Shown in pieces: positions 738 through 63,152 of a DNA stretch of 64,000 nt. Source of the stretch: Escherichia coli. GTDB taxonomy: Bacteria > Pseudomonadota > Gammaproteobacteria > Enterobacterales > Enterobacteriaceae. A program made the translations under genes and the position numbers. The notes beneath the pieces were generated by a model. That model was not told the origin of the DNA and searched no databases. It saw only the letters and a program-made list of their open reading frames with translations. Where the stretch lies: NCBI RefSeq assembly GCF_017348835.2, contig NZ_CP071375.1; one strand, 5' to 3'. How positions within the stretch are numbered: position 1 is the first letter of the stretch; each line of letters starts with the position of its first letter.

Positions 738-3700
738 GTGAAGTTTTTTGCCCTCTTCATTTACCGCCCGGTGGCGACGATTTTACTGTCGGTCGCCATT
801 ACCCTGTGCGGCATACTGGGTTTCCGTATGCTGCCGGTCGCCCCGCTGCCGCAGGTCGATTTTCCGGTGATTATGGTCAGCGCCTCGCTGCCCGGTGCGT
901 CGCCGGAGACAATGGCGTCTTCCGTTGCCACGCCGCTGGAGCGCTCACTTGGGCGCATTGCCGGGGTCAGTGAAATGACCTCCAGCAGTTCGCTCGGCAG
1001 CACGCGTATTATTTTGCAGTTTGATTTTGACCGGGATATCAACGGTGCGGCGCGTGATGTGCAGGCGGCGATCAACGCCGCACAAAGTCTGCTGCCCAGT
1101 GGGATGCCCAGCCGCCCGACTTATCGCAAAGCGAACCCGTCGGATGCGCCAATTATGATCCTGACGCTAACCTCCGATACTTATTCGCAGGGTGAATTGT
1201 ACGATTTCGCCTCGACGCAGCTGGCTCCGACGATTTCGCAAATCGACGGCGTCGGTGATGTCGATGTCGGCGGCAGCTCGCTGCCCGCCGTGCGCGTCAG
1301 GCTGAACCCGCAGGCGCTGTTTAATCAGGGCGTGTCGCTGGACGACGTACGCGCTGCCATCAGCAATGCCAACGTGCGTAAACCGCAGGGGGCGCTGGAA
1401 GATGGCACTCACCGCTGGCAGATCCAGACCAACGATGAACTGAAAACCGCCGCTGAATATCAGCCGTTGATTATTCATTACAACAACGGCGGCGCGGTTC
1501 GTCTGGGCGATGTGGCGACGGTGACCGACTCAGTGCAGGATGTGCGCAACGCCGGGATGACCAACGCCAAACCGGCTATTTTGCTGATGATCCGCAAGCT
1601 GCCGGAAGCCAATATTATCCAGACGGTTGACAGCATCCGGGCAAAATTACCGGAGTTGCAGGAAACCATTCCGGCGGCGATTGATCTGCAAATTGCTCAG
1701 GATCGCTCCCCCACCATTCGCGCCTCGCTGGAAGAAGTCGAGCAAACGCTGATTATCTCGGTGGCGCTGGTGATTCTGGTGGTGTTTTTATTCCTGCGCT
1801 CGGGTCGCGCCACTATTATTCCCGCCGTTGCGGTGCCGGTTTCGCTGATTGGTACGTTTGCGGCGATGTACCTGTGCGGATTCAGTCTCAATAACCTGTC
1901 GTTAATGGCGCTCACCATCGCCACAGGCTTTGTGGTGGATGACGCCATCGTGGTGCTGGAAAACATTGCCCGTCATCTGGAAGCGGGGATGAAACCACTA
2001 CAGGCCGCGCTACAAGGTACTCGCGAAGTCGGTTTTACGGTGCTGTCGATGAGTCTGTCACTGGTGGCGGTGTTCCTGCCGCTGCTGTTGATGGGCGGAT
2101 TGCCGGGACGACTGTTACGCGAGTTTGCCGTAACGCTTTCTGTCGCCATTGGTATTTCGTTGCTGGTTTCCCTGACGCTAACGCCGATGATGTGTGGCTG
2201 GATGCTGAAAGCCAGCAAGCCGCGCGAGCAAAAGCGACTACGTGGTTTTGGTCGCATGTTGGTAGCCCTGCAACAAGGCTACGGCAAGTCACTGAAATGG
2301 GTGCTCAATCATACCCGTCTGGTGGGCGTGGTGCTGCTTGGCACCATTGCGCTGAATATCTGGCTATATATCTCGATCCCGAAAACCTTCTTCCCGGAGC
2401 AGGACACTGGCGTGTTGATGGGCGGGATTCAGGCGGATCAGAGTATTTCGTTTCAGGCGATGCGCGGTAAGTTGCAGGATTTCATGAAAATTATCCGTGA
2501 CGATCCGGCAGTGGATAATGTCACCGGATTTACCGGCGGTTCGCGAGTGAACAGCGGGATGATGTTTATCACCCTCAAGCCACGCGACGAACGCAGCGAA
2601 ACGGCGCAGCAAATTATCGACCGTCTGCGCGTGAAGCTGGCGAAAGAACCGGGGGCGAATCTGTTCCTGATGGCGGTACAGGATATTCGCGTTGGTGGGC
2701 GTCAGTCGAACGCCAGCTACCAGTACACGTTGTTATCCGACGACCTGGCGGCACTGCGCGAATGGGAGCCGAAAATCCGCAAAAAACTGGCGACGTTGCC
2801 GGAACTGGCGGACGTGAACTCCGATCAGCAGGATAACGGCGCGGAGATGAATCTGGTTTACGACCGCGACACCATGGCACGGCTGGGAATCGACGTACAG
2901 GCCGCCAACAGTCTGTTAAATAACGCCTTCGGTCAGCGGCAAATCTCGACCATTTACCAGCCGATGAACCAGTATAAAGTGGTGATGGAAGTGGATCCGC
3001 GCTATACCCAGGACATCAGCGCGCTGGAAAAAATGTTCGTTATCAATAACGAAGGCAAAGCGATCCCGCTGTCGTATTTCGCTAAATGGCAACCGGCGAA
3101 TGCCCCGCTGTCGGTGAATCATCAGGGATTATCGGCGGCCTCGACCATCTCGTTCAACCTACCGACCGGAAAATCGCTCTCGGACGCCAGTGCGGCGATC
3201 GATCGCGCAATGACCCAGCTTGGTGTGCCTTCGACGGTGCGCGGTAGTTTTGCCGGCACGGCGCAGGTGTTCCAGGAGACGATGAACTCGCAGGTGATCC
3301 TGATTATCGCCGCCATCGCTACGGTGTATATCGTGCTGGGTATCCTTTACGAGAGTTACGTACATCCGCTGACGATTCTCTCCACCCTGCCCTCGGCGGG
3401 CGTTGGAGCGCTGCTGGCGCTGGAGCTGTTCAATGCCCCGTTCAGCCTAATCGCCCTGATAGGGATCATGCTATTAATCGGCATCGTGAAGAAAAACGCC
3501 ATTATGATGGTCGATTTTGCGCTCGAAGCCCAACGGCACGGTAACCTGACGCCGCAGGAAGCTATTTTCCAGGCCTGTCTGCTGCGTTTTCGCCCGATTA
3601 TGATGACTACCCTGGCGGCGCTGTTTGGCACGCTGCCGCTGGTGTTGTCGGGCGGTGACGGCTCGGAGTTGCGCCAACCATTGGGGATCACCATTGTCGG

Positions 3701-3815: not shown

Positions 3816-5231
3816 ATGACAGATCTTCCCGACAGCACCCGCTGGCAATTGTGGATTGTGGCTTTCGGCTTCTTTATGCAGTCGCTGGACACCACCATCG
3901 TAAACACCGCCCTTCCCTCAATGGCGCAAAGCCTCGGGGAAAGTCCGTTGCATATGCACATGGTCATTGTCTCTTATGTACTGACCGTGGCGGTGATGCT
4001 GCCCGCCAGCGGCTGGCTGGCGGACAAAGTCGGCGTGCGCAATATTTTCTTTACCGCCATCATGCTGTTTACTCTCGGTTCACTGTTTTGCGCGCTTTCC
4101 GGCACGCTGAACGAACTGTTGCTGGCACGCGCGTTACAGGGCGTGGGCGGTGCGATGATGGTGCCGGTCGGCAGGTTGACGGTGATGAAAATCGTACCGC
4201 GCGAGCAATATATGGCGGCGATGACCTTTGTCACGTTACCCGGTCAGGTCGGTCCGCTGCTCGGTCCGGCGCTTGGCGGTCTGCTGGTGGAGTACGCGTC
4301 GTGGCACTGGATCTTTTTGATCAACATTCCGGTGGGAATTATTGGTGCGATCGCCACATTGATGTTAATGCCGAACTATACCATGCAGACGCGGCGCTTT
4401 GATCTCTCCGGCTTTCTGTTGCTGGCGGTTGGCATGGCGGTATTAACCCTGGCGCTGGACGGCAGTAAAGGTACAGGTTTATCGCCGCTGGCGATTGCTG
4501 GCCTGGTCGCAGTTGGCGTGGTGGCACTGGTGCTTTATCTGCTGCACGCCAGAAATAACAACCGTGCCCTGTTCAGTCTGAAACTGTTCCGTACTCGTAC
4601 CTTTTCGCTGGGCCTGGCGGGGAGCTTTGCCGGACGTATTGGCAGTGGCATGTTGCCCTTTATGACACCGGTTTTCTTACAGATTGGCCTCGGTTTCTCA
4701 CCGTTTCATGCCGGACTGATGATGATCCCGATGGTGCTTGGCAGCATGGGAATGAAGCGAATTGTAGTTCAGGTGGTGAATCGCTTTGGTTATCGTCGGG
4801 TACTGGTAGCGACCACGCTGGGTCTGTCGCTGGTCACCCTACTGTTTATGACTACCGCTCTGCTGGGCTGGTACTATGTTTTGCCGTTCGTCCTGTTTTT
4901 ACAAGGAATGGTCAACTCGACGCGTTTCTCCTCTATGAACACCCTGACGCTGAAAGATCTCCCGGACAATCTGGCGAGCAGCGGCAACAGTCTGCTGTCG
5001 ATGATTATGCAATTGTCGATGAGTATCGGCGTCACCATCGCCGGGCTGTTGCTGGGACTTTTTGGTTCGCAGCATGTCAGCGTCGACAGCGGCACCACAC
5101 AAACCGTCTTTATGTACACCTGGCTTAGCATGGCGTTTATCATCGCCCTTCCGGCGTTCATCTTTGCCAGAGTGCCGAACGATACGCATCAAAATGTAGC
5201 TATTTCGCGGCGAAAAAGGAGCGCGCAATGA
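3816..5231 (+). CDS. mdtD: MFS transporter MdtD (471 aa)
   Basis: 471-aa ORF starting directly after mdtC stop; MFS-type hydrophobic profile; position in mdtABCD-baeSR operon. Confidence 0.9.
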
Positions 5232-17531: not shown

Positions 17532-18467
<936 letters not shown>

Positions 18468-21309: not shown

Positions 21310-22310
21310 AAACAGAACGTATTCTCGGTGCTCTTTATGGGCAGGCGTTAGGGGATGCGATGGGGATGCCCTCCGAGCTTTGGCCACGCAGCCGCGTTAA
21401 AGCATACTTTGGCTGGATTGACCGTTTTCTGCCTGGACCAAAGGAGAATAACGCGGCCTGTTATTTTAACCGCGCCGAATTCACCGACGATACCTCGATG
21501 GCGCTGTGTCTGGCGGATGCGTTGCTGGAACGTGAAGGCAAGATCGATCCGGATCTGATTGGGCGTAATATCCTCGACTGGGCGCTGCGTTTCGACGCCT
21601 TCAACAAAAACGTGCTAGGTCCGACCTCGAAGATTGCGCTTAACGCCATTCGCGACGGTAAACCCGTTGCTGAACTGGATAACAACGGCGTGACCAACGG
21701 CGCAGCGATGCGCGTCTCGCCATTAGGTTGTTTGCTTCCGGCGCGTGATGTTGATTCCTTTATTGATGATGTGGCGCTGGCGTCCAGCCCGACCCATAAA
21801 TCCGATCTGGCGGTTGCAGGTGCGGTAGTCATCGCATGGGCGATTTCTCGTGCCATTGACGGAGAAAGCTGGTCAGCAATTGTTGATTCACTGCCTTCAA
21901 TTGCGCGACATGCACAGCAAAAACGCATCACTACCTTCAGCGCCTCACTGGCGGCGCGGCTGGAGATTGCGCTGAAAATTGTGCGCAATGCAGACGGCAC
22001 TGAATCCGCCAGCGAACAGCTTTACCAGGTCGTTGGCGCAGGTACCAGCACTATTGAGTCCGTTCCGTGCGCCATTGCGCTGGTTGAACTGGCACAAACC
22101 GACCCGAACCGTTGCGCCGTCCTCTGCGCTAACCTTGGCGGCGATACAGACACCATCGGTGCTATGGCGACGGCAATCTGCGGCGCGTTGCATGGCATTA
22201 ACGCTATCGATCCTGCGTTAAAGGCGGAACTGGATGCGGTAAATCAGCTTGATTTCAACCGCTATGCCACAGCGCTGGCGAAGTATCGTCAACAACGGGA
22301 GGCGGCATGA
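21306..22310 (+). CDS. yegU: ADP-ribosylglycohydrolase-family protein YegU (334 aa)
   Basis: ATGA overlap with yegT stop; ADP-ribosylglycohydrolase family signature (GDAMG...TDDT). Confidence 0.85.
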   Translation: MKTERILGALYGQALGDAMGMPSELWPRSRVKAYFGWIDRFLPGPKENNAACYFNRAEFTDDTSMALCLADALLEREGKIDPDLIGRNILDWALRFDAFNKNVLGPTSKIALNAIRDGKPVAELDNNGVTNGAAMRVSPLGCLLPARDVDSFIDDVALASSPTHKSDLAVAGAVVIAWAISRAIDGESWSAIVDSLPSIARHAQQKRITTFSASLAARLEIALKIVRNADGTESASEQLYQVVGAGTSTIESVPCAIALVELAQTDPNRCAVLCANLGGDTDTIGAMATAICGALHGINAIDPALKAELDAVNQLDFNRYATALAKYRQQREAA

Positions 22311-23272
22311 GCGGCGCTCGATTACACACGCTGCTGCCTGAATTAACCACGCGTCAGCCGGTTATGGTGATTGGCGCGGCAGTCATTGATGTGATCGCCG
22401 ACGCTTATGCCCTCCCCTGGCGTGGGTGCGATATCGAACTGAAACAGCAGAGCGTTAACGTTGGCGGCTGCGCACTGAATATTGCCGTGGCGTTAAAGCG
22501 CCTCGGCATCGAAGCGGGTAAAGCCTTGCCGCTCGGTCAGGGCGTGTGGGCGGAGATTATTCGCAACCGGATGGCAAAAGAGGGCTTAATCAGCCTGATC
22601 GATAACGCCGAAGGTGATAACGGCTGGTGTCTGGCGCTGGTTGAGCCGGATGGCGAACGCACTTTTATGTCATTCAGCGGTGTGGAAAATCAGTGGAATC
22701 GCCAGTGGCTGGCGCGATTAACCGTTGCGCCTGGCAGCCTGCTCTATTTTTCCGGTTATCAACTGGCCTCGCCCTGCGGCGAATTGTTAGTGGAATGGCT
22801 GGAAAAGCTGCAAGACGTGACGCCGTTTATCGATTTTGGCCCACGTATTGGCGATATCCCGGACGCATTACTGGCGCGGATCATGGCCTGTCGACCTTTA
22901 GTGTCACTCAATCGTCAAGAGGCTGAGATTGCCGCCGAACGTTTTGCTTTATCCGCAGAGATAACAACACTTGGCAAGCAATGGCAGGAGAAATTTGCCG
23001 CGCCGTTGATCGTTCGTCTCGATAAAGAAGGCGCATGGTATTTCAGCAACGACGCTTCTGGCTGCATTCCGGCATATCCAAGGCAAGTTGTAGATACCAT
23101 TGGGGCGGGCGACAGTCATGCAGGTGGCGTACTTGCCGGGCTGGCTTCTGGTCTGCCACTGGCGGATGCCGTATTACTGGGCAATGCAGTGGCGTCGTGG
23201 GTTGTCGGGCATCGGGGCGGTGATTGTGCGCCAACGCGCGAGGAACTACTCCTCGCACACAAAAACGTATAG
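22307..23272 (+). CDS. yegV: PfkB/ribokinase-family sugar or nucleoside kinase YegV (321 aa)
   Basis: ATGA overlap with yegU stop; PfkB C-terminal motif DTIGAGDSHAGG. Confidence 0.85.
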   Translation: MSGARLHTLLPELTTRQPVMVIGAAVIDVIADAYALPWRGCDIELKQQSVNVGGCALNIAVALKRLGIEAGKALPLGQGVWAEIIRNRMAKEGLISLIDNAEGDNGWCLALVEPDGERTFMSFSGVENQWNRQWLARLTVAPGSLLYFSGYQLASPCGELLVEWLEKLQDVTPFIDFGPRIGDIPDALLARIMACRPLVSLNRQEAEIAAERFALSAEITTLGKQWQEKFAAPLIVRLDKEGAWYFSNDASGCIPAYPRQVVDTIGAGDSHAGGVLAGLASGLPLADAVLLGNAVASWVVGHRGGDCAPTREELLLAHKNV

Positions 23273-23992
23273 ATCGCTGCGACAGTGGCTAATGCTGTAC
23301 TCAATAGGCCGTTGCTGTTGGTCAAGCGCCACTTGCTTGATCACCAGCACCGGTATTTTGCTATCTAACTGAATATGTGACTGAAACTCGGCATCCGGCA
23401 TCCGGGCGCTAACGCGGGAACGCGTACGTTGTGGGTAAATGTGCTGGCTGCGGAAATAGTCATAAAGAGAAATTCCGATGGCATCAACATCATGAATTAA
23501 ATGCGCCGGAACCCACGATTCCTCAATCGATACCGCTTCTTCATCGACATAGCGAATACGCTTAAGCAAAAAGACATCACTTCCCGCTTCGACCGCCAGC
23601 TGCTGCGCGACTTCTTCGGGACATTTCACGACACGCTTGTTAACCCATAGCGTATCGGGCTTTTTCCCGCGCAATACCACCTGCTGAGAAAAACCTCGCG
23701 CTTCTTTCAACGAGTATTCGAAGATGTTGTTGATCTGCGTGCCGTAACCACGCGAACGCGTCACCACGCCCTCTTCTTCCAGCGCCTGCATCGCCTTGCG
23801 CACCGTAATGCGCGAAACGCCGGTTAACTGACTTAAATCACGCTCACCGGGCAAAATATTGCCATGCTCCAGCACCCCGCTGCGCACGGCATTTTTTACC
23901 GTTTCGGCAAACTTAATATAAAGCGGCGTGTTATCCGCCGCTAAAATACGCTCGTTCAGTTGGGCAATCAGCTGGGTATGCGCTTGTTCCAT
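23246..23992 (-). CDS. yegW: GntR-family transcriptional regulator YegW (248 aa)
   Basis: N-terminal GntR HTH, UTRA-like C-terminus; convergent 27-nt overlap with yegV. Confidence 0.85.
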   Translation of the reverse strand: MEQAHTQLIAQLNERILAADNTPLYIKFAETVKNAVRSGVLEHGNILPGERDLSQLTGVSRITVRKAMQALEEEGVVTRSRGYGTQINNIFEYSLKEARGFSQQVVLRGKKPDTLWVNKRVVKCPEEVAQQLAVEAGSDVFLLKRIRYVDEEAVSIEESWVPAHLIHDVDAIGISLYDYFRSQHIYPQRTRSRVSARMPDAEFQSHIQLDSKIPVLVIKQVALDQQQRPIEYSISHCRSDLYVFVCEE

Positions 23993-57557: not shown

Positions 57558-59239
57558 GCCTCGTCCCTCCATGGTAGTCGTAACGTTATTCGGGTGTAAC
57601 TATCAGGCTCACAGGCGACGCTTATCCCATAGTCATCGCCAAACCGTTCACGTAAACGCTTATCCACCAGATTCATACCCAGCCCACTGGCATTGGTTAC
57701 CGGTTGATACAAACCGGCATTGTCTTCGATCTCCAGCATCAAATGTTGCCCCTCACGTCGGGCGCTGATTGCCACTCGCCCTGTATCCAGCAGTTGTGAT
57801 GTCCCATGTTTAATGGCGTTTTCCACTATCGGTTGCAGGGTAAACGCGGGCAATTGCTGCTGGGATAATTCTTGCGGAATAGCAATGTTGACCTGCAACC
57901 GCGACTGGAAGCGCGCCTTTTCAATTTGCAGATAAGCGTTCACATGTTCAATTTCGTCGGCGAGAGTAACAAACTCCGAAGGCCGCTTTAAGTTTTTGCG
58001 GAAAAAAGTGGAAAGATACTGCACCAGCTGGCTGGCCTGTTCGCTGTCGCGACGGATCACAGCTTTAATGGTGTTAAGCGCATTAAACAAAAAATGGGGG
58101 TTCACCTGGGCGTGAAGCAGTTTGATCTCTGACTGGGTGAGCATCGCTTTTTGCCGCTCATATTGCCCGGCGAGGATCTGCGCCGAAAGCAGTTGCGCAA
58201 TCCCCTCGCCCAGCGTGCGGTTGATTGAACTGAATAAACGGTTTTTGGCTTCATACAATTTGATGGTGCCCATCACCCGCTGATTTTCACCACGCAACGG
58301 AATTACCAGCGTCGACCCCAGTTTGCATTGCGGATGCAAAGAGCAACGATAAGGTACTTCGTTGCCATCAGCGTAGACCACTTCACCGGTTTCAATCGCT
58401 TTTAAAGTATAAGTTGAAGAAATCGGTTTGCCGGGTAAATGGTGGTCGTCACCAATTCCGGTAAAGGCCAGCAATTTCTCTCGATCGGTAATCGCGACTG
58501 CACCAATATCCAGCTCCTGATACAGCACCTGAGCCACTTTCATGCTGTTCACTTCGTTAAACCCCTGTCGCAAAATGCCTTCCGTCGAGGCTGCCACTTT
58601 CAGCGCAGTGGCAGAAAAAGCCGAAGTGTATTTTTCAAACATCGCGCGTTTATCGAGCAATATACGCATAAACAGCGCCGCGCCGACGGTATTGGTGACC
58701 ATCATTGGCGCAGCAATATTACTCACCAGACGCACCGCATCTTCATAAGGTCGGGCGATCGCCAGGATGATCAGCATTTGCACCATTTCAGCGACGAACG
58801 TGACGGCACCGGCGGTAATGGGGTTAAAGACTTTATCAGTGCGCCCGCGGCGGATCAGGATGCTGTGTACCAGGCCACCGAGCAATCCTTCAACGATGGT
58901 CGAGATCATGCAACTTAACGCGGTCATGCCCCCCATCGAATATCGATGTAACCCGCCGGTCAGACCAACCAGCCCACCGACGACCGGACCGCCGAGTAAG
59001 CCGCCCATTACCGCGCCTATCGCACGGGTATTGGCAATAGAATCGTCAATGTGCAACCCAAACCAGGTGCCCATGATGCAGAAGATGGAAAAGACGATGT
59101 AGCAGAGAAATTTATGCGGCAGACGAACCGTGACCTGCATTAACGGTATGAATAATGGCGTTTTACTCATTAACCACGCAATGACTAAAAAAACGCACAT
59201 CTGCTGAAGCAGCAGCAACACCAGATTAAAATCGTACAT
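57554..59239 (-). CDS. btsS: LytS-type sensor histidine kinase BtsS (YehU), 561 aa
   Basis: 5TM LytS-type N-terminus, GAF-like region, His-kinase C-terminus; overlaps btsR start. Confidence 0.9.
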
Positions 59240-59460
59240 ACCCGCAAACCACACTTCCCTTTAAAACGCGTAACATACATTGCCTGCGTTTAACTTTCTT
59301 TGAACTCTTGCAGAAAAATGAGAATTCGTGAGTACGATCACTCAAAATCGCCTGGCAAAAATAAAATCACCCTATAGATGCACAAAAAACGGGCAAAACT
59401 ACCTGGTTCGCAAAACTGCGTCTAAAGTTAAACCGGGACCTCGCGAGCAAGGGTGAGACG

Positions 59461-60192
59461 ATGGCGCTTTACACAATTGGTGAAGTGGCGTTGCTTTGTG
59501 ATATTAACCCTGTCACGTTACGCGCGTGGCAGAGGCGTTACGGATTGCTGAAACCGCAACGGACAGACGGCGGTCATCGGCTGTTCAACGATGCCGATAT
59601 TGACCGGATCCGCGAGATCAAACGCTGGATCGACAACGGCGTACAGGTCAGCAAAGTTAAAATGCTGCTCAGTAATGAAAATGTTGATGTGCAGAACGGC
59701 TGGCGCGATCAGCAAGAAACATTACTGACTTACTTGCAAAGCGGCAATCTGCATAGCCTGCGAACGTGGATCAAAGAGCGCGGTCAGGATTACCCCGCCC
59801 AGACGCTCACCACGCATTTGTTTATTCCTCTGCGTCGACGGCTTCAGTGCCAACAACCGACTCTCCAGGCGCTGCTGGCGATCCTCGACGGCGTACTGAT
59901 CAACTACATCGCCATTTGTCTGGCTTCGGCACGTAAAAAACAGGGTAAAGATGCGCTGGTGGTTGGCTGGAATATTCAGGATACCACCCGTCTGTGGCTG
60001 GAGGGCTGGATTGCCAGTCAACAAGGATGGCGCATTGATGTCCTCGCCCACTCGCTCAATCAACTACGCCCTGAACTATTCGAAGGCCGTACATTGCTGG
60101 TGTGGTGCGGTGAAAATCGAACCTCCGCCCAACAGCAGCAACTCACCAGTTGGCAAGAACAAGGCCATGATATTTTCCCACTCGGCATTTAA
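59461..60192 (+). CDS. mlrA: MerR-family transcriptional regulator MlrA (243 aa)
   Basis: N-terminal MerR HTH (YTIGEVALLCDINPVTLRAWQRRYGLL). Confidence 0.9.
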   Translation: MALYTIGEVALLCDINPVTLRAWQRRYGLLKPQRTDGGHRLFNDADIDRIREIKRWIDNGVQVSKVKMLLSNENVDVQNGWRDQQETLLTYLQSGNLHSLRTWIKERGQDYPAQTLTTHLFIPLRRRLQCQQPTLQALLAILDGVLINYIAICLASARKKQGKDALVVGWNIQDTTRLWLEGWIASQQGWRIDVLAHSLNQLRPELFEGRTLLVWCGENRTSAQQQQLTSWQEQGHDIFPLGI

Positions 60193-60251
60193 TGATTCGT
60201 TAACAAATGCGCTTTACTGTACAATCCTTTCGTTAACATAAGGAGTGCATT

Positions 60252-60359
60252 ATGCGCATAGCTAAAATTGGGGTCATCGCCCTGTTCCTGTTTATGGCGT
60301 TAGGCGGAATTGGTGGCGTCATGCTCGCAGGTTATACCTTTATTTTGCGTGCTGGCTAA
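60252..60359 (+). CDS. yohO: Small membrane protein YohO (35 aa)
   Basis: ATG with AGGAGTG RBS; 35-codon hydrophobic [38 protein letters not shown]; below ORF-track cutoff. Confidence 0.75.
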
Positions 60360-61071
60360 GCGCCTGCACCAGCCTTTCAAACAGGCGGTCTGCGATGATC
60401 GCCGCCAGTGCCACCAGTAACGCCCCCTGGATCACATACGCGGTATTAAATCCGCTAAGCCCGATGATGATGGGCGTACCCAGCGTGCTGGCCCCTACCG
60501 TTGAGGCGATCGTCGCCGTACCAATGTTGATAATCACCGAAGTTCGCACGCCCGCCAGAATCACCGGAGCCGCCAGCGGTAGCTCGACCTTACGCAGTCG
60601 CTGACCACGACTCATTCCCATACCCTTCGCAACTTCTGTCACGCTGGCATCAATCGCTCCCAGCCCGGCAAGTGTCGCCTGCAGGACGGGCAGCACACCG
60701 TACAGGATCAAGGCGATAATCGCCGGTTGCAGGCCAAAGCCGATCACCGGAACGGCAATCGCCAGCACCGCAACGGGCGGAAAAGTCTGCCCAACGGCGG
60801 CAATAGTTTCCACCAGTGGGCGAAATTCCGCGCCCCACGGGCGAGTGACAGCAATTCCGGCACCAGTACCAATGATCACCGCAAACAAACTCGAAATTCC
60901 CACCAGCCAGAAATGAGCCAGTGCCAGAGCTGCAAAACTTTCTTGCTGATAAACGGGTCGTGGCAGTTGTGGGAACAAGGCAGCAAACAGCGGCTGGCTG
61001 TAAGGCAGCCAGAAAATCAGTGCCACAAACAAAGCAATGAGCCAGAACAGCGGATCGCGCAACATCTTCAT
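60340..61071 (-). CDS. yehW: Osmoprotectant ABC transporter permease YehW (243 aa)
   Basis: ABC permease with EAA-like loop; synteny. Confidence 0.9.
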
Positions 61072-61075
61072 ACGC

Positions 61076-62002
61076 TTACGCCTCCACCAGCAGATCCCGA
61101 AAATGCAGCGTGCCGCAAGGCTGGCCCTGCGTGTTCACCACCGGCAGCACCTCGCATCCCCGCGCGACAAACAGAGAGAGCGCATCGCGCAGCGTCATCT
61201 CTTCTGCCAGTGCCTCACCTTCTGCCCGTTCTTCGCGACGCACGTAATCCGCCACACTACGTAACGAAAGCAGGCGCACCCCCAGTTCACTACGTCCAAA
61301 AAACTGGCGGACAAAATCATTCGCCGGACGAGTCAGCATCGTCAGCGGATTCCCCTGCTGCACCACTTCACCGTGATCCATCAATACCAGATGTTCTGCC
61401 AGCCGTAGCGCCTCATCAATATCATGAGTGACCAGCACAATAGTGCGCCCCAGCAAACGGTGAATGCGCGTCATCTCTTGTTGCAACGCGCCGCGCGTTA
61501 CCGGGTCCAGTGCGCCAAAAGGTTCATCCATCAGTAAGACTTGCGGATCGGCAGCCAGTGCGCGCGCCACTCCCACACGTTGCTGCTGACCACCGGAAAG
61601 CTGATGCGGATAACGCTCACGCAAATTTGACTCCAGCCCCAGTAGCGCCATTAATTCGTCGATACGATCGTCAATCCTCGCCCGCGACCATTTTTGTAAT
61701 TGCGGCACGGTAGCGATGTTTTGCGCCACGCTCCAGTGGGGGAACAGGCCAATAGATTGAATGGCATAGCCCATTCGGCGGCGCAACTCCAGTACTGGCA
61801 GCGAGCGAATTTCTTCTCCGGCAAAGCGGATCTCTCCGCTGTCATGCTCCACCAGGCGGTTAATCATTTTCAGGGTGGTGGATTTGCCGGAACCAGATGT
61901 GCCAATCAGCACCGAAAAACTCCCTTCCTGAAAATTGAGATTGAGATCGTTAACGGCTTTTTGTGCGCCGAACAGTTTGCTGACATGGCTAAATTCAATC
62001 AT
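61076..62002 (-). CDS. yehX: Osmoprotectant ABC transporter ATP-binding protein YehX (308 aa)
   Basis: Walker [10 protein letters not shown], signature LSGGQQQR, Walker B LLMDEP. Confidence 0.92.
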
Positions 62003-63152
62003 TACGTTTCACCTTCAGCAGTGCGATAAGCAAATCGAACAGCGCGTCGGTAAGCACCGCCAGAACAATTACCGGGATCACCCCCAGCAACACTAAATCA
62101 ATGGCGCTGCTTAGCAGCCCCTGGAAAACCAGCGCACCAAAACCGCCTGCGCCGATTAACGCCGCAATCACCGCCATACCTACAGTTTGTACCATCACCA
62201 CCCGCAGGCTGCGCAGAAATACCGGTAACGCCAGTGGTAACTGAACATGCAGGAATCGCTGCGCCCCGCTCATCCCCATCGCTCTGGCGCTTTCCAGCAC
62301 ATCGCGCGGGATCTGGTTCAAACCGACTACCACGCCGCGCACCAGCGGCAGCAAGGCATAGAGCACCAGCGCAATCAGTGCGGGTGTCATTCCGGTTCCT
62401 GCTATGCCGAGCTTCCCCAGCCACGGAAAGGCCGTCACCAGCGCGGCAAGCGGCGCAATCAACAGGCCAAAGAGCGCCACCGAAGGCACGGTCTGAATGA
62501 CATTGAGCAGAGAAAAAATCGCCCCCTGCCGCGCGGTGGAAAAGTAGCACCAGATGCCCAATGGCACACCAATCACTAACGCAGGCAGCACCGCACCAAA
62601 CAGCAACGTCAGATGTTGTGCCAGCGCGTCGTCAAACACATCCTGACGGTTGGCGTATTCTTTCATTAGCGAGAGATCGTTAAGCGTGCCGGAGTAAAGC
62701 AACCACAGCGGAATAATGGCAATCTGCATATGCAACAACCAGCGCCACAGCGGATGCGTGGAGATTCGGCGGATGGCATCGCTACAGGCCAGCAATGCCA
62801 GCGCCGCAGCCAGCCAGAAACCACTGCCGAGGCTGGTACGCGCCAGCGCACTGCCATTTTGCGCCAGTTGGGTCGCCGCCTTTCCAGCTCCCCACACCAG
62901 CAATACGAAGACGAATTGCGCCAGAATGAGTGCAAAAATGCTGCCTTTTTTAGCGGGAATAAAACAGGCTGTCAGCCAGGCGCAACCAACGCCCACCAGC
63001 ATCCAGATCGTTTGCGGCCACAGTTGCCAGAGATGACGCCCTTCACCCGAGACTAAACGATTAGGCGCGTAACTGATAAACGGCAGCGCCGCTGCGATTG
63101 CCGTCAGCAACATCAGCAGCGCCAGAACAGGATTAATACGTAGATAAGTCAC
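61995..63152 (-). CDS. yehY: Osmoprotectant ABC transporter permease YehY (385 aa)
   Basis: ABC permease; 8-nt overlap with yehX start. Confidence 0.9.

Follow-up and report, generated by a model that had tools for sequence, protein, structure and literature searches.

A conserved tail-to-tail overlap between the small-protein gene yohO and yehW, the last gene of the osmF-yehYXW operon of Escherichia coli

The window analyzed here is a stretch of 64,000 nucleotides of contig NZ_CP071375.1 from Escherichia coli, and positions are those of the window unless a genome coordinate is named. Near the end of the window, the RefSeq gene order is mlrA, yohO, yehW, yehX, yehY, and osmF. The open reading frames of yohO, on the plus strand, and yehW, on the minus strand, converge and have exactly 20 nt in common. 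The TAA stop codon of yehW is the reverse complement of 60340-60342 (TTA on the plus strand) and lies inside the yohO codons for Phe30 and Ile31, and the TAA stop codon of yohO at 60357-60359 falls across the yehW codons for Leu and Ser. Because stop codons set both ends, the overlap is independent of the choice of start codon. The first-pass annotation had reported this tail-to-tail overlap, and its coordinates agree with both the list of open reading frames and RefSeq, where a 100%-identical E. coli record (L001) carries yohO at 3853-3960 on the plus strand and yehW at 3941-4672 on the minus strand. The interval 59400-61200 is 100% identical to E. coli strain PE164, and the region was found in 5422 of 5426 complete E. 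coli genomes. Elsewhere, the PE164 record labels gatY a pseudogene interrupted by an internal stop (1733410-1734264, corresponding to window positions ~17559-18413).

YehW corresponds to RefSeq WP_000783120.1, encoded in the context osmF-yehY-yehX-yehW in a record 100% identical over the region, and its homologs carry the Pfam domain BPD_transp_1. Identification as ChoW or ProW was considered and rejected, as YehW scored under both equivalog cut-offs and is thus a member of neither family. A genomic SELEX peak lies within yehW at coordinate 2214150 (window ~60724, with U00096.2 assumed), with an intensity of 4.0 and the listed context yohO > yehW < yehX; it comes from a table of "constitutive promoters" of minor sigma factors, the sigma factor probably being RpoE.

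YohO matched the NCBIfam equivalog NF010225, "protein YohO", over its full length (residues 1-35) with 80.1 bits against a cut-off of 57, and YohO homologs carry a precomputed assignment to Pfam PF27791 (UPF0387_membrane). The protein has been detected at native levels by top-down mass spectrometry (PMC12529367). A small-protein prediction study found in-frame Ribo-seq coverage of yohO, and for the membrane-bound nature of this small protein it refers to Hemm et al. (2008). In an alignment of ~85 loci, the entropy of yohO outside the overlap was 0.45-0.57, 0.08-0.28, and 1.10-1.16 at codon positions 1, 2, and 3. The mass spectrometry, Ribo-seq, and codon-position entropy together establish that yohO is translated and under purifying selection, and so dispose of the possibility, raised in the first-pass annotation, that it is not translated. 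Among 49 distinct YohO proteins, a 10-residue glycine-rich core was nearly invariant. The family is tiny and lineage-restricted; an exhaustive search of 1.84 billion representative proteins returned 17 matches, most of which were frameshifted or fused fragments of enterobacterial YohO.

Table 1. Positions of genes, sequence elements, and mapped transcript features around the yohO-yehW overlap
Feature	Position	Strand	Basis and remarks
Promoter-like block of yohO	60196..60225	+	TTCGTTAACA (60196-60205), 14 nt, then -10-like TACAAT (60220-60225); alignment of ~85 loci
Shine-Dalgarno sequence of yohO	60240..60245	+	AAGGAG, 6 nt before ATG; (A)AGGAG in nearly all loci
yohO CDS	60252..60359	+	35-aa ATG open reading frame; UPF0387 / NF010225; single-helix small membrane protein
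Convergent CDS overlap	60340..60359	both	20 nt; open reading frames, sequence, RefSeq
yehW CDS	60340..61071	-	243-aa open reading frame; permease; last gene of the osmF-yehYXW glycine betaine ABC transporter operon
yehX	61076-62002	-	Upstream gene of the yehW operon; list of open reading frames, RefSeq
yehY	61995-63152	-	Upstream gene of the yehW operon; osmF runs past the window end
3' extension of the osmF-yehYXW transcript past the yehW stop	60234..60339	-	Antisense to the entire yohO CDS, Shine-Dalgarno sequence, and 5' UTR; Conway et al. as tabulated by Huang et al.
dsRNA cluster S-173	60264..60555	both	U00096.2 2213690-2213981; Huang et al. 2020, Table S1e
3' UTR of yohO	60360..60408	+	Term-seq end; wholly antisense to yehW codons
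7-bp hairpin	60384..60403	+	GGCGGUC / GAUCGCC with 6-nt loop; minimum free energy fold; ends 5 nt before the mapped 3' end
Untranslated stretch antisense to yehW	60409..60600	+	C-rich (C/G 1.30); holds the Rho region (~60590) and the Conway et al. terminator (60488)

The conservation of the overlap was examined in 80 yehW loci, one per species, with Escherichia, Citrobacter, Salmonella, Enterobacter, Klebsiella, Kosakonia, Leclercia, Buttiauxella, Cedecea, and Pantoea among the genera represented. A convergent YohO homolog overlapped the yehW CDS in 79 of the 80 Enterobacterales species, the sole exception (L079) being a locus without yohO altogether. The overlap measured 20 nt in 34 loci, 26 nt in 42, 17 nt in two, and 14 nt in Pantoea. 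The yehW stop codon was always at the homologous place in the 20-nt and 26-nt groups alike, where it reads as TTA or TCA within the yohO codons for F/V-I, and the difference between the two groups is a two-codon indel by which both tails were lengthened. In one Citrobacter amalonaticus locus (strain AUH_CA_2023_1, L007, ~3213-3320), the N-terminal half of the YohO homolog is disrupted and only residues 12-35 align. The cause is either a frameshift that made the gene a pseudogene or a fault in the assembly, and the locus retains a 20-nt overlap with yehW.

Within the overlap, position 3 of the yohO codon coincides with position 2 of the yehW codon, and position 2 of yohO with position 3 of yehW, so that the variation at each site can be assigned to the constraint of one frame or the other. 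By yohO codon position, the entropy of the overlap was 0.08, 0.09, and 0.73 in the 26-nt group and 0.46, 0.56, and 0.75 in the 20-nt group. Position 2 of yehW therefore varies more than position 3 inside the overlap, whereas in the next 90 nt yehW displays its normal pattern of 0.33, 0.06, and 1.15. The 12 nt of yehW lying beyond the yohO stop codon vary at all three positions (1.0-1.6). Since substitutions in the overlap follow the codon phase of yohO and the adjoining 12 nt are variable throughout, the last ~11 residues of YehW, following the conserved ...FER(L), appear from the alignments to be an unconstrained passenger tail with its final codons dictated by yohO.

The first-pass annotation had suggested that the overlap could couple an "MlrA-side transcript" to the osmoprotectant transporter operon. 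Upstream of yohO, the aligned loci share a conserved block, TTCATTAACA-N14-TATAAT, with TATAAT in most species and TACAAT in E. coli. AAGGAG and the ATG follow ~20 nt after the -10-like element and are conserved in all upstream contexts, and the block itself is present also where the gene upstream is other than mlrA (L082-L087). The transcript start of yohO in the map of Conway et al., given by Huang et al. (PMC7373196) as U00096.2 2213660, corresponds to window position 60234, which fits the position of the block. A simple sigma-70 scan did not call this block as a promoter, because its match to the -35 element is poor.

Examination of the gene neighborhoods likewise separated yohO from mlrA. 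The mlrA gene was upstream of yohO in 75 of the 80 loci; the overlap with yehW was kept in four loci with no mlrA in the flank (L035, L048, L057, and L076), as well as in Klebsiella loci and Pantoea, where mlrA is displaced by 0.3-1.8 kb. The two most divergent true homologs of YohO again had a 20-nt convergent overlap with a yehW homolog; in one group the gene upstream is metG or encodes an HTH regulator, and in the other it encodes a TonB-dependent receptor. With its own conserved promoter-like block, and with the overlap kept in loci without mlrA upstream, yohO appears to be an autonomous transcription unit tied to yehW rather than to mlrA. The proposed partnership with an MlrA-side transcript is thus not upheld, given the promoter-like block, the separately mapped start, and the persistence of the overlap next to upstream genes other than mlrA.

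Several further elements were observed around the start of yohO. An MlrA-type palindrome around TGTACAAT (60218-60225) was sought by eye and discarded, as only one half-site-like match was present and it coincided with the -10 element. An exact 10-nt direct repeat of TTCGTTAACA occurs at 60196-60205 and 60229-60238, each copy holding the palindrome GTTAAC; one copy is located at the -35 region of yohO and the other between the -10 element and the Shine-Dalgarno sequence. Both copies are conserved across genera as (T)TAACA, and the second is the center of an imperfect palindrome (60222-60247) that takes in the Shine-Dalgarno sequence. The repeat and palindrome could be a binding site for a regulator or a 5' structure.

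On the minus strand, a sigma-70-like promoter was predicted at 60249-60277 within the 5' end of yohO (ATGACC, 17 nt, CATAAT; transcription start ~60242), its -10 element overlapping the yohO start codon. Exactly 7 nt downstream of this prediction, the table of Huang et al. (PMC7373196) gives an antisense transcription start of Thomason et al. at U00096.2 2213668(-). The predicted promoter would yield an RNA complementary to the yohO 5' UTR and to mlrA. RNA duplexes bound by the p19 protein were also captured inside mlrA, at window positions 59867-59900 (PMC7373196). Close to the start of mlrA, Term-seq placed a 3' end 38 nt into the open reading frame (MG1655 2214904, window 59499; PMC7815308), directly after a hairpin and T-run found by the terminator scan at 59465-59487, which could reflect premature termination or attenuation.

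The 3' end of the yohO transcript was located from the Term-seq data for MG1655 of Adams et al. (2021, PMC7815308), in which position 2215813(+) is listed three times and classified as "primary" for yohO and "antisense" to yehW. Each 61-nt string of that data set runs from 50 nt upstream of the end base to 10 nt downstream of it, as checked on the row for SgrS, and the offset between MG1655 and the window was confirmed on the internal end of mlrA. The yohO end falls at window position 60408, 49 nt past the yohO stop codon and 69 nt inside the yehW CDS; its counts were low, from 861 to 1115 (PMC7815308). In the bicyclomycin experiment of the same study, a region of Rho-dependent termination was called on the plus strand with a peak at 2215995, a Rho score of 5.64, and a p value of 9.4e-16 (PMC7815308). 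This peak corresponds to window position ~60590, ~230 nt past the yohO stop codon.

Intrinsic termination was also considered. The consensus scan found no terminator-like site on either strand between 60285 and 61200; the only match nearby was a weak plus-strand site within yohO (60269-60284), and the total found was no greater than in shuffled sequences. The longest runs of T or A around the ends of yohO and yehW were 4 nt. A shared bidirectional intrinsic terminator was rejected, as the scan yielded no site in the overlap zone and none beyond the shuffles, and the plus-strand end is Rho-dependent. The predicted fold of 60340-60420 was no more stable than its shuffles (z -0.95). For the hairpin just upstream of the mapped end, 78% of cells in an alignment of 76 distinct sequences were paired, as compared to 22-63% in slid controls, with some exchanges of G-C for C-G and of G-C for U-A. 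Its position, together with a moderate conservation within coding sequence, is suggestive of a hairpin that probably blocks trimming by 3' exonucleases.

For the opposite strand, no minus-strand 3' end of yehW was mapped by Term-seq. A Rho-dependent region was reported inside osmF in exponential LB cultures at MG1655 2219421 (-), ~window 64016, just past the window end (PMC7815308), which suggests that the osmF-yehYXW operon is attenuated early in exponential LB. Because of this region, few operon transcripts may reach yohO under those conditions.

Double-stranded RNA from the overlap was demonstrated directly by Huang et al. (2020; PMC7373196), who captured RNase III products with p19. Their stationary-phase cluster S-173 is named "yehW yohO" and typed "Full"; its coordinates were transferred to the window with an offset checked on the UAA stop codon at 2213783. 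The cluster amounts to 367.9 RPM, made up of 194.0 sense and 173.9 antisense, with 57.1 and 238.9 RPM in the replicates. This abundance of 368 RPM is modest, as the top coding-gene clusters in the list reach several thousand to ~18,000 RPM. The reads cover >50% of the yohO CDS, and paired 21-nt duplexes were found on both strands at 60357-60416, the first of them starting at the yohO stop codon (UAAGCGCCUGCACCAGCCUUU).

The coverage-based transcript map of Conway et al. (2014), as reproduced by Huang et al. (PMC7373196), holds an operon of 3884 nt at 2213660-2217544, which we read as the minus-strand osmF-yehYXW transcript at window 60234-64118. The same source gives a plus-strand transcript of 254 nt, from the promoter at 2213660 to a terminator at 2213914 (window 60234-60488), with the comment "Overlap cds annotated yohO". 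The extension of the operon transcript past the yehW stop codon is supported by the dsRNA reads, which reach down to 60264, and the terminator scan gave no minus-strand site within this extension (60234-60339). Conway et al. (2014) counted 18 coding transcripts completely within an opposite-strand operon transcript, and yohO would be one of these sense transcripts if the reproduced columns are read correctly. In addition, yohO-yehW is among the 165 convergent excludons detected by ExcludonFinder in at least 50% of 58 RNA-seq samples (2025; PMC12288877).

The antisense overlap of the two mRNAs put forward in the first-pass annotation is therefore real and extends far beyond 20 nt, as indicated by the Term-seq end, the Rho region, the p19-captured dsRNA, and the excludon list. 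That annotation had also allowed that the transcripts might terminate before overlapping, which is contradicted by the yohO end 69 nt into yehW and by the capture of dsRNA. The overlap is already known, being present in the standard annotation, mapped at the transcript level, captured as dsRNA, and catalogued as an excludon. What this work adds is confined to the depth of conservation, the frame of constraint, and the shift of the linkage of yohO from mlrA to yehW.

The published transcript data show for yohO and yehW the features of a convergent excludon (Conway et al. 2014; ExcludonFinder 2025), that is, neighboring genes converging on opposite strands, transcripts that overlap by 3' read-through, and dsRNA cut by RNase III. 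Most pairs on the excludon list have an intergenic spacer (mean, 95 nt), whereas the coding sequences of yohO and yehW themselves overlap (PMC12288877). A functional excludon is defined by opposite expression, and the placement of yohO-yehW is by transcript overlap and dsRNA. The wholly embedded transcripts of Conway et al. and the "Full" class of Huang et al., such as tpx within mpaA-ycjG, offer a closer likeness, as the ~254-nt yohO transcript is likewise fully covered in the reproduced map. The arrangement differs from a noncontiguous operon, in which the embedded gene lies between genes of the operon; no operon gene lies beyond yohO, and the covering RNA is a long 3' UTR.

The hok/sok, ibs/sib, and ldr/rdl type I toxin-antitoxin systems also pair a small hydrophobic protein with an mRNA fully complementary to an opposite-strand RNA. 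In contrast to these, yohO is a single-copy core gene across Enterobacteriaceae whose protein is detectable at native levels. A type I toxin-antitoxin reading was set aside, as the antisense RNA is the 3' UTR of an operon with no dedicated sRNA gene, and the locus is single and conserved in 79 of 80 species. A search of Rfam found no family in 58000-62000.

Taken together, the observations are probably best explained by a nested antisense pair: with both genes expressed, their RNAs would form a duplex that RNase III cuts. The yohO gene would be a small, independently transcribed gene nested tail to tail in the 3' end of the osmF-yehYXW operon, with the yehW frame reading through the antisense of the C-terminal yohO codons until it meets a stop in the Phe/Val-Ile codons. 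The 20-nt overlap of coding sequences would exist because the last ~11 residues of YehW are without sequence constraint. Polymerases from the yohO promoter would run ~150-230 nt into antisense yehW and be stopped there by Rho, and the RNA may then be trimmed by exonucleases back to the hairpin at +49. Operon transcripts, in turn, would extend across all of yohO, roughly as far as its promoter. If both RNAs are present, as seen in stationary phase, the complementary strands would pair and RNase III would cut the duplex.

Such pairing would likely produce a reciprocal and asymmetric damping, and we infer its direction and size at the level of YohO and YehW from the transcript layout. Read-through of the operon should lower YohO synthesis because the operon RNA covers the entire yohO mRNA including the ribosome-binding site. 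Only the final 69 to ~250 nt of yehW are complementary to the yohO RNA, and transcription of yohO should clip or destabilize only the 3' end of the operon mRNA, such that yehW would be affected. Head-on collisions of polymerases may add to the damping. Any selective value of the nested arrangement is likewise a matter of inference.

The nested antisense pair must be weighed against a neutral origin, in which the overlap and read-through were tolerated as by-products of compact packing and weak termination and inherited with no regulatory role. The yohO 3' end would simply have come to lie inside the dispensable YehW tail, embedding each stop codon in the other gene. Since most convergent operons in E. 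coli (276 of 370, or 75%) read into each other, by a mean of 286 nt (Conway et al. 2014), overlapping convergent transcription alone does not imply regulation. Convergent CDS overlaps are also frequent locally, being found in two of the four convergent pairs in 50 kb of the window. The second such pair is yegV (22307-23272, +) and yegW (23246-23992, -), which share 27 nt at 23246-23272 in the same tail-to-tail overlap of a few codons between annotated genes, differing from yohO-yehW in that both genes are of ordinary size. A neutral origin also fits the lack of constraint on the YehW tail, the drift of the overlap by codon indels through 14, 17, 20, and 26 nt, the low levels of dsRNA and transcript, and the similar tail length kept by the yehW homolog of the one species lacking yohO.

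Set against a neutral origin is the retention of the overlap throughout 79 species, even with an adjoining spacer that is free to change, together with the conservation of the promoter-like block and of the 3' hairpin. Stop codons by which yehW would escape the overlap at an earlier point numbered 0 versus ~10 expected in 71 distinct sequences, a weak one-codon signal obtained with a column-independent model from related sequences. Excludon pairs taken as a class, which is the only level at which the comparison was made, have higher synteny and lower single-cell co-expression than controls (PMC12288877). We consider a purely neutral origin the main rival reading, possible but the less likely one. 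As a kind of event, a convergent overlap such as that of yohO and yehW is no more than expected by chance; this particular overlap is nevertheless not accidental.

Another possibility is that the partnership lies in the proteins, with YohO as an accessory or regulatory subunit of OsmF-YehYXW and the DNA overlap secondary. In every context recovered, whether mlrA, metG, an HTH regulator, or a TonB-dependent receptor is upstream, yohO occurs only beside yehW, and the restriction of the family to 17 representatives among 1.84 billion proteins would suit a dedicated subunit. GxxxG and glycine-zipper motifs serve helix packing, and the invariant glycine-rich face of the YohO helix is a motif of this kind. 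KdpF, AcrZ, MgtS, MntS, and SgrT are small membrane proteins that modulate transporters. They are like YohO in having fewer than 50 aa and a single hydrophobic helix and in being encoded beside transporter genes; yohO, however, is convergent with the transporter genes rather than being co-transcribed, as for KdpF, or under separate regulation elsewhere in the genome, and any functional likeness of YohO to them would be by analogy.

The physical overlap by itself makes the two genes inseparable by rearrangement, and their synteny is consequently not independent evidence of a protein partnership. The genes are moreover convergent and not co-transcribed, with a transcript layout from which antagonism would be expected and not co-expression; one species (L079) has the transporter but lacks yohO, and the literature examined reports no interaction or transport phenotype for YohO. 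We regard a subunit role as unlikely. A bolder proposal, which we offer as highly speculative, is that YohO is a lineage-specific modulator of OsmF-YehYXW that arose downstream of yehW in an ancestor of Enterobacteriaceae and Erwiniaceae, with read-through from the operon silencing yohO as a built-in switch. If this were true, the transporter and its YohO modulator would be made at different times.

The yohO-yehW overlap is in itself an ordinary arrangement and matters little. It is nonetheless ancient, extending from Escherichia to Pantoea, and it evolves under the frame of yohO, making it a clean and small example of a convergent overlap that persists. The tie of yohO to yehW points the search for the function of YohO to the betaine transporter or to its mRNA.
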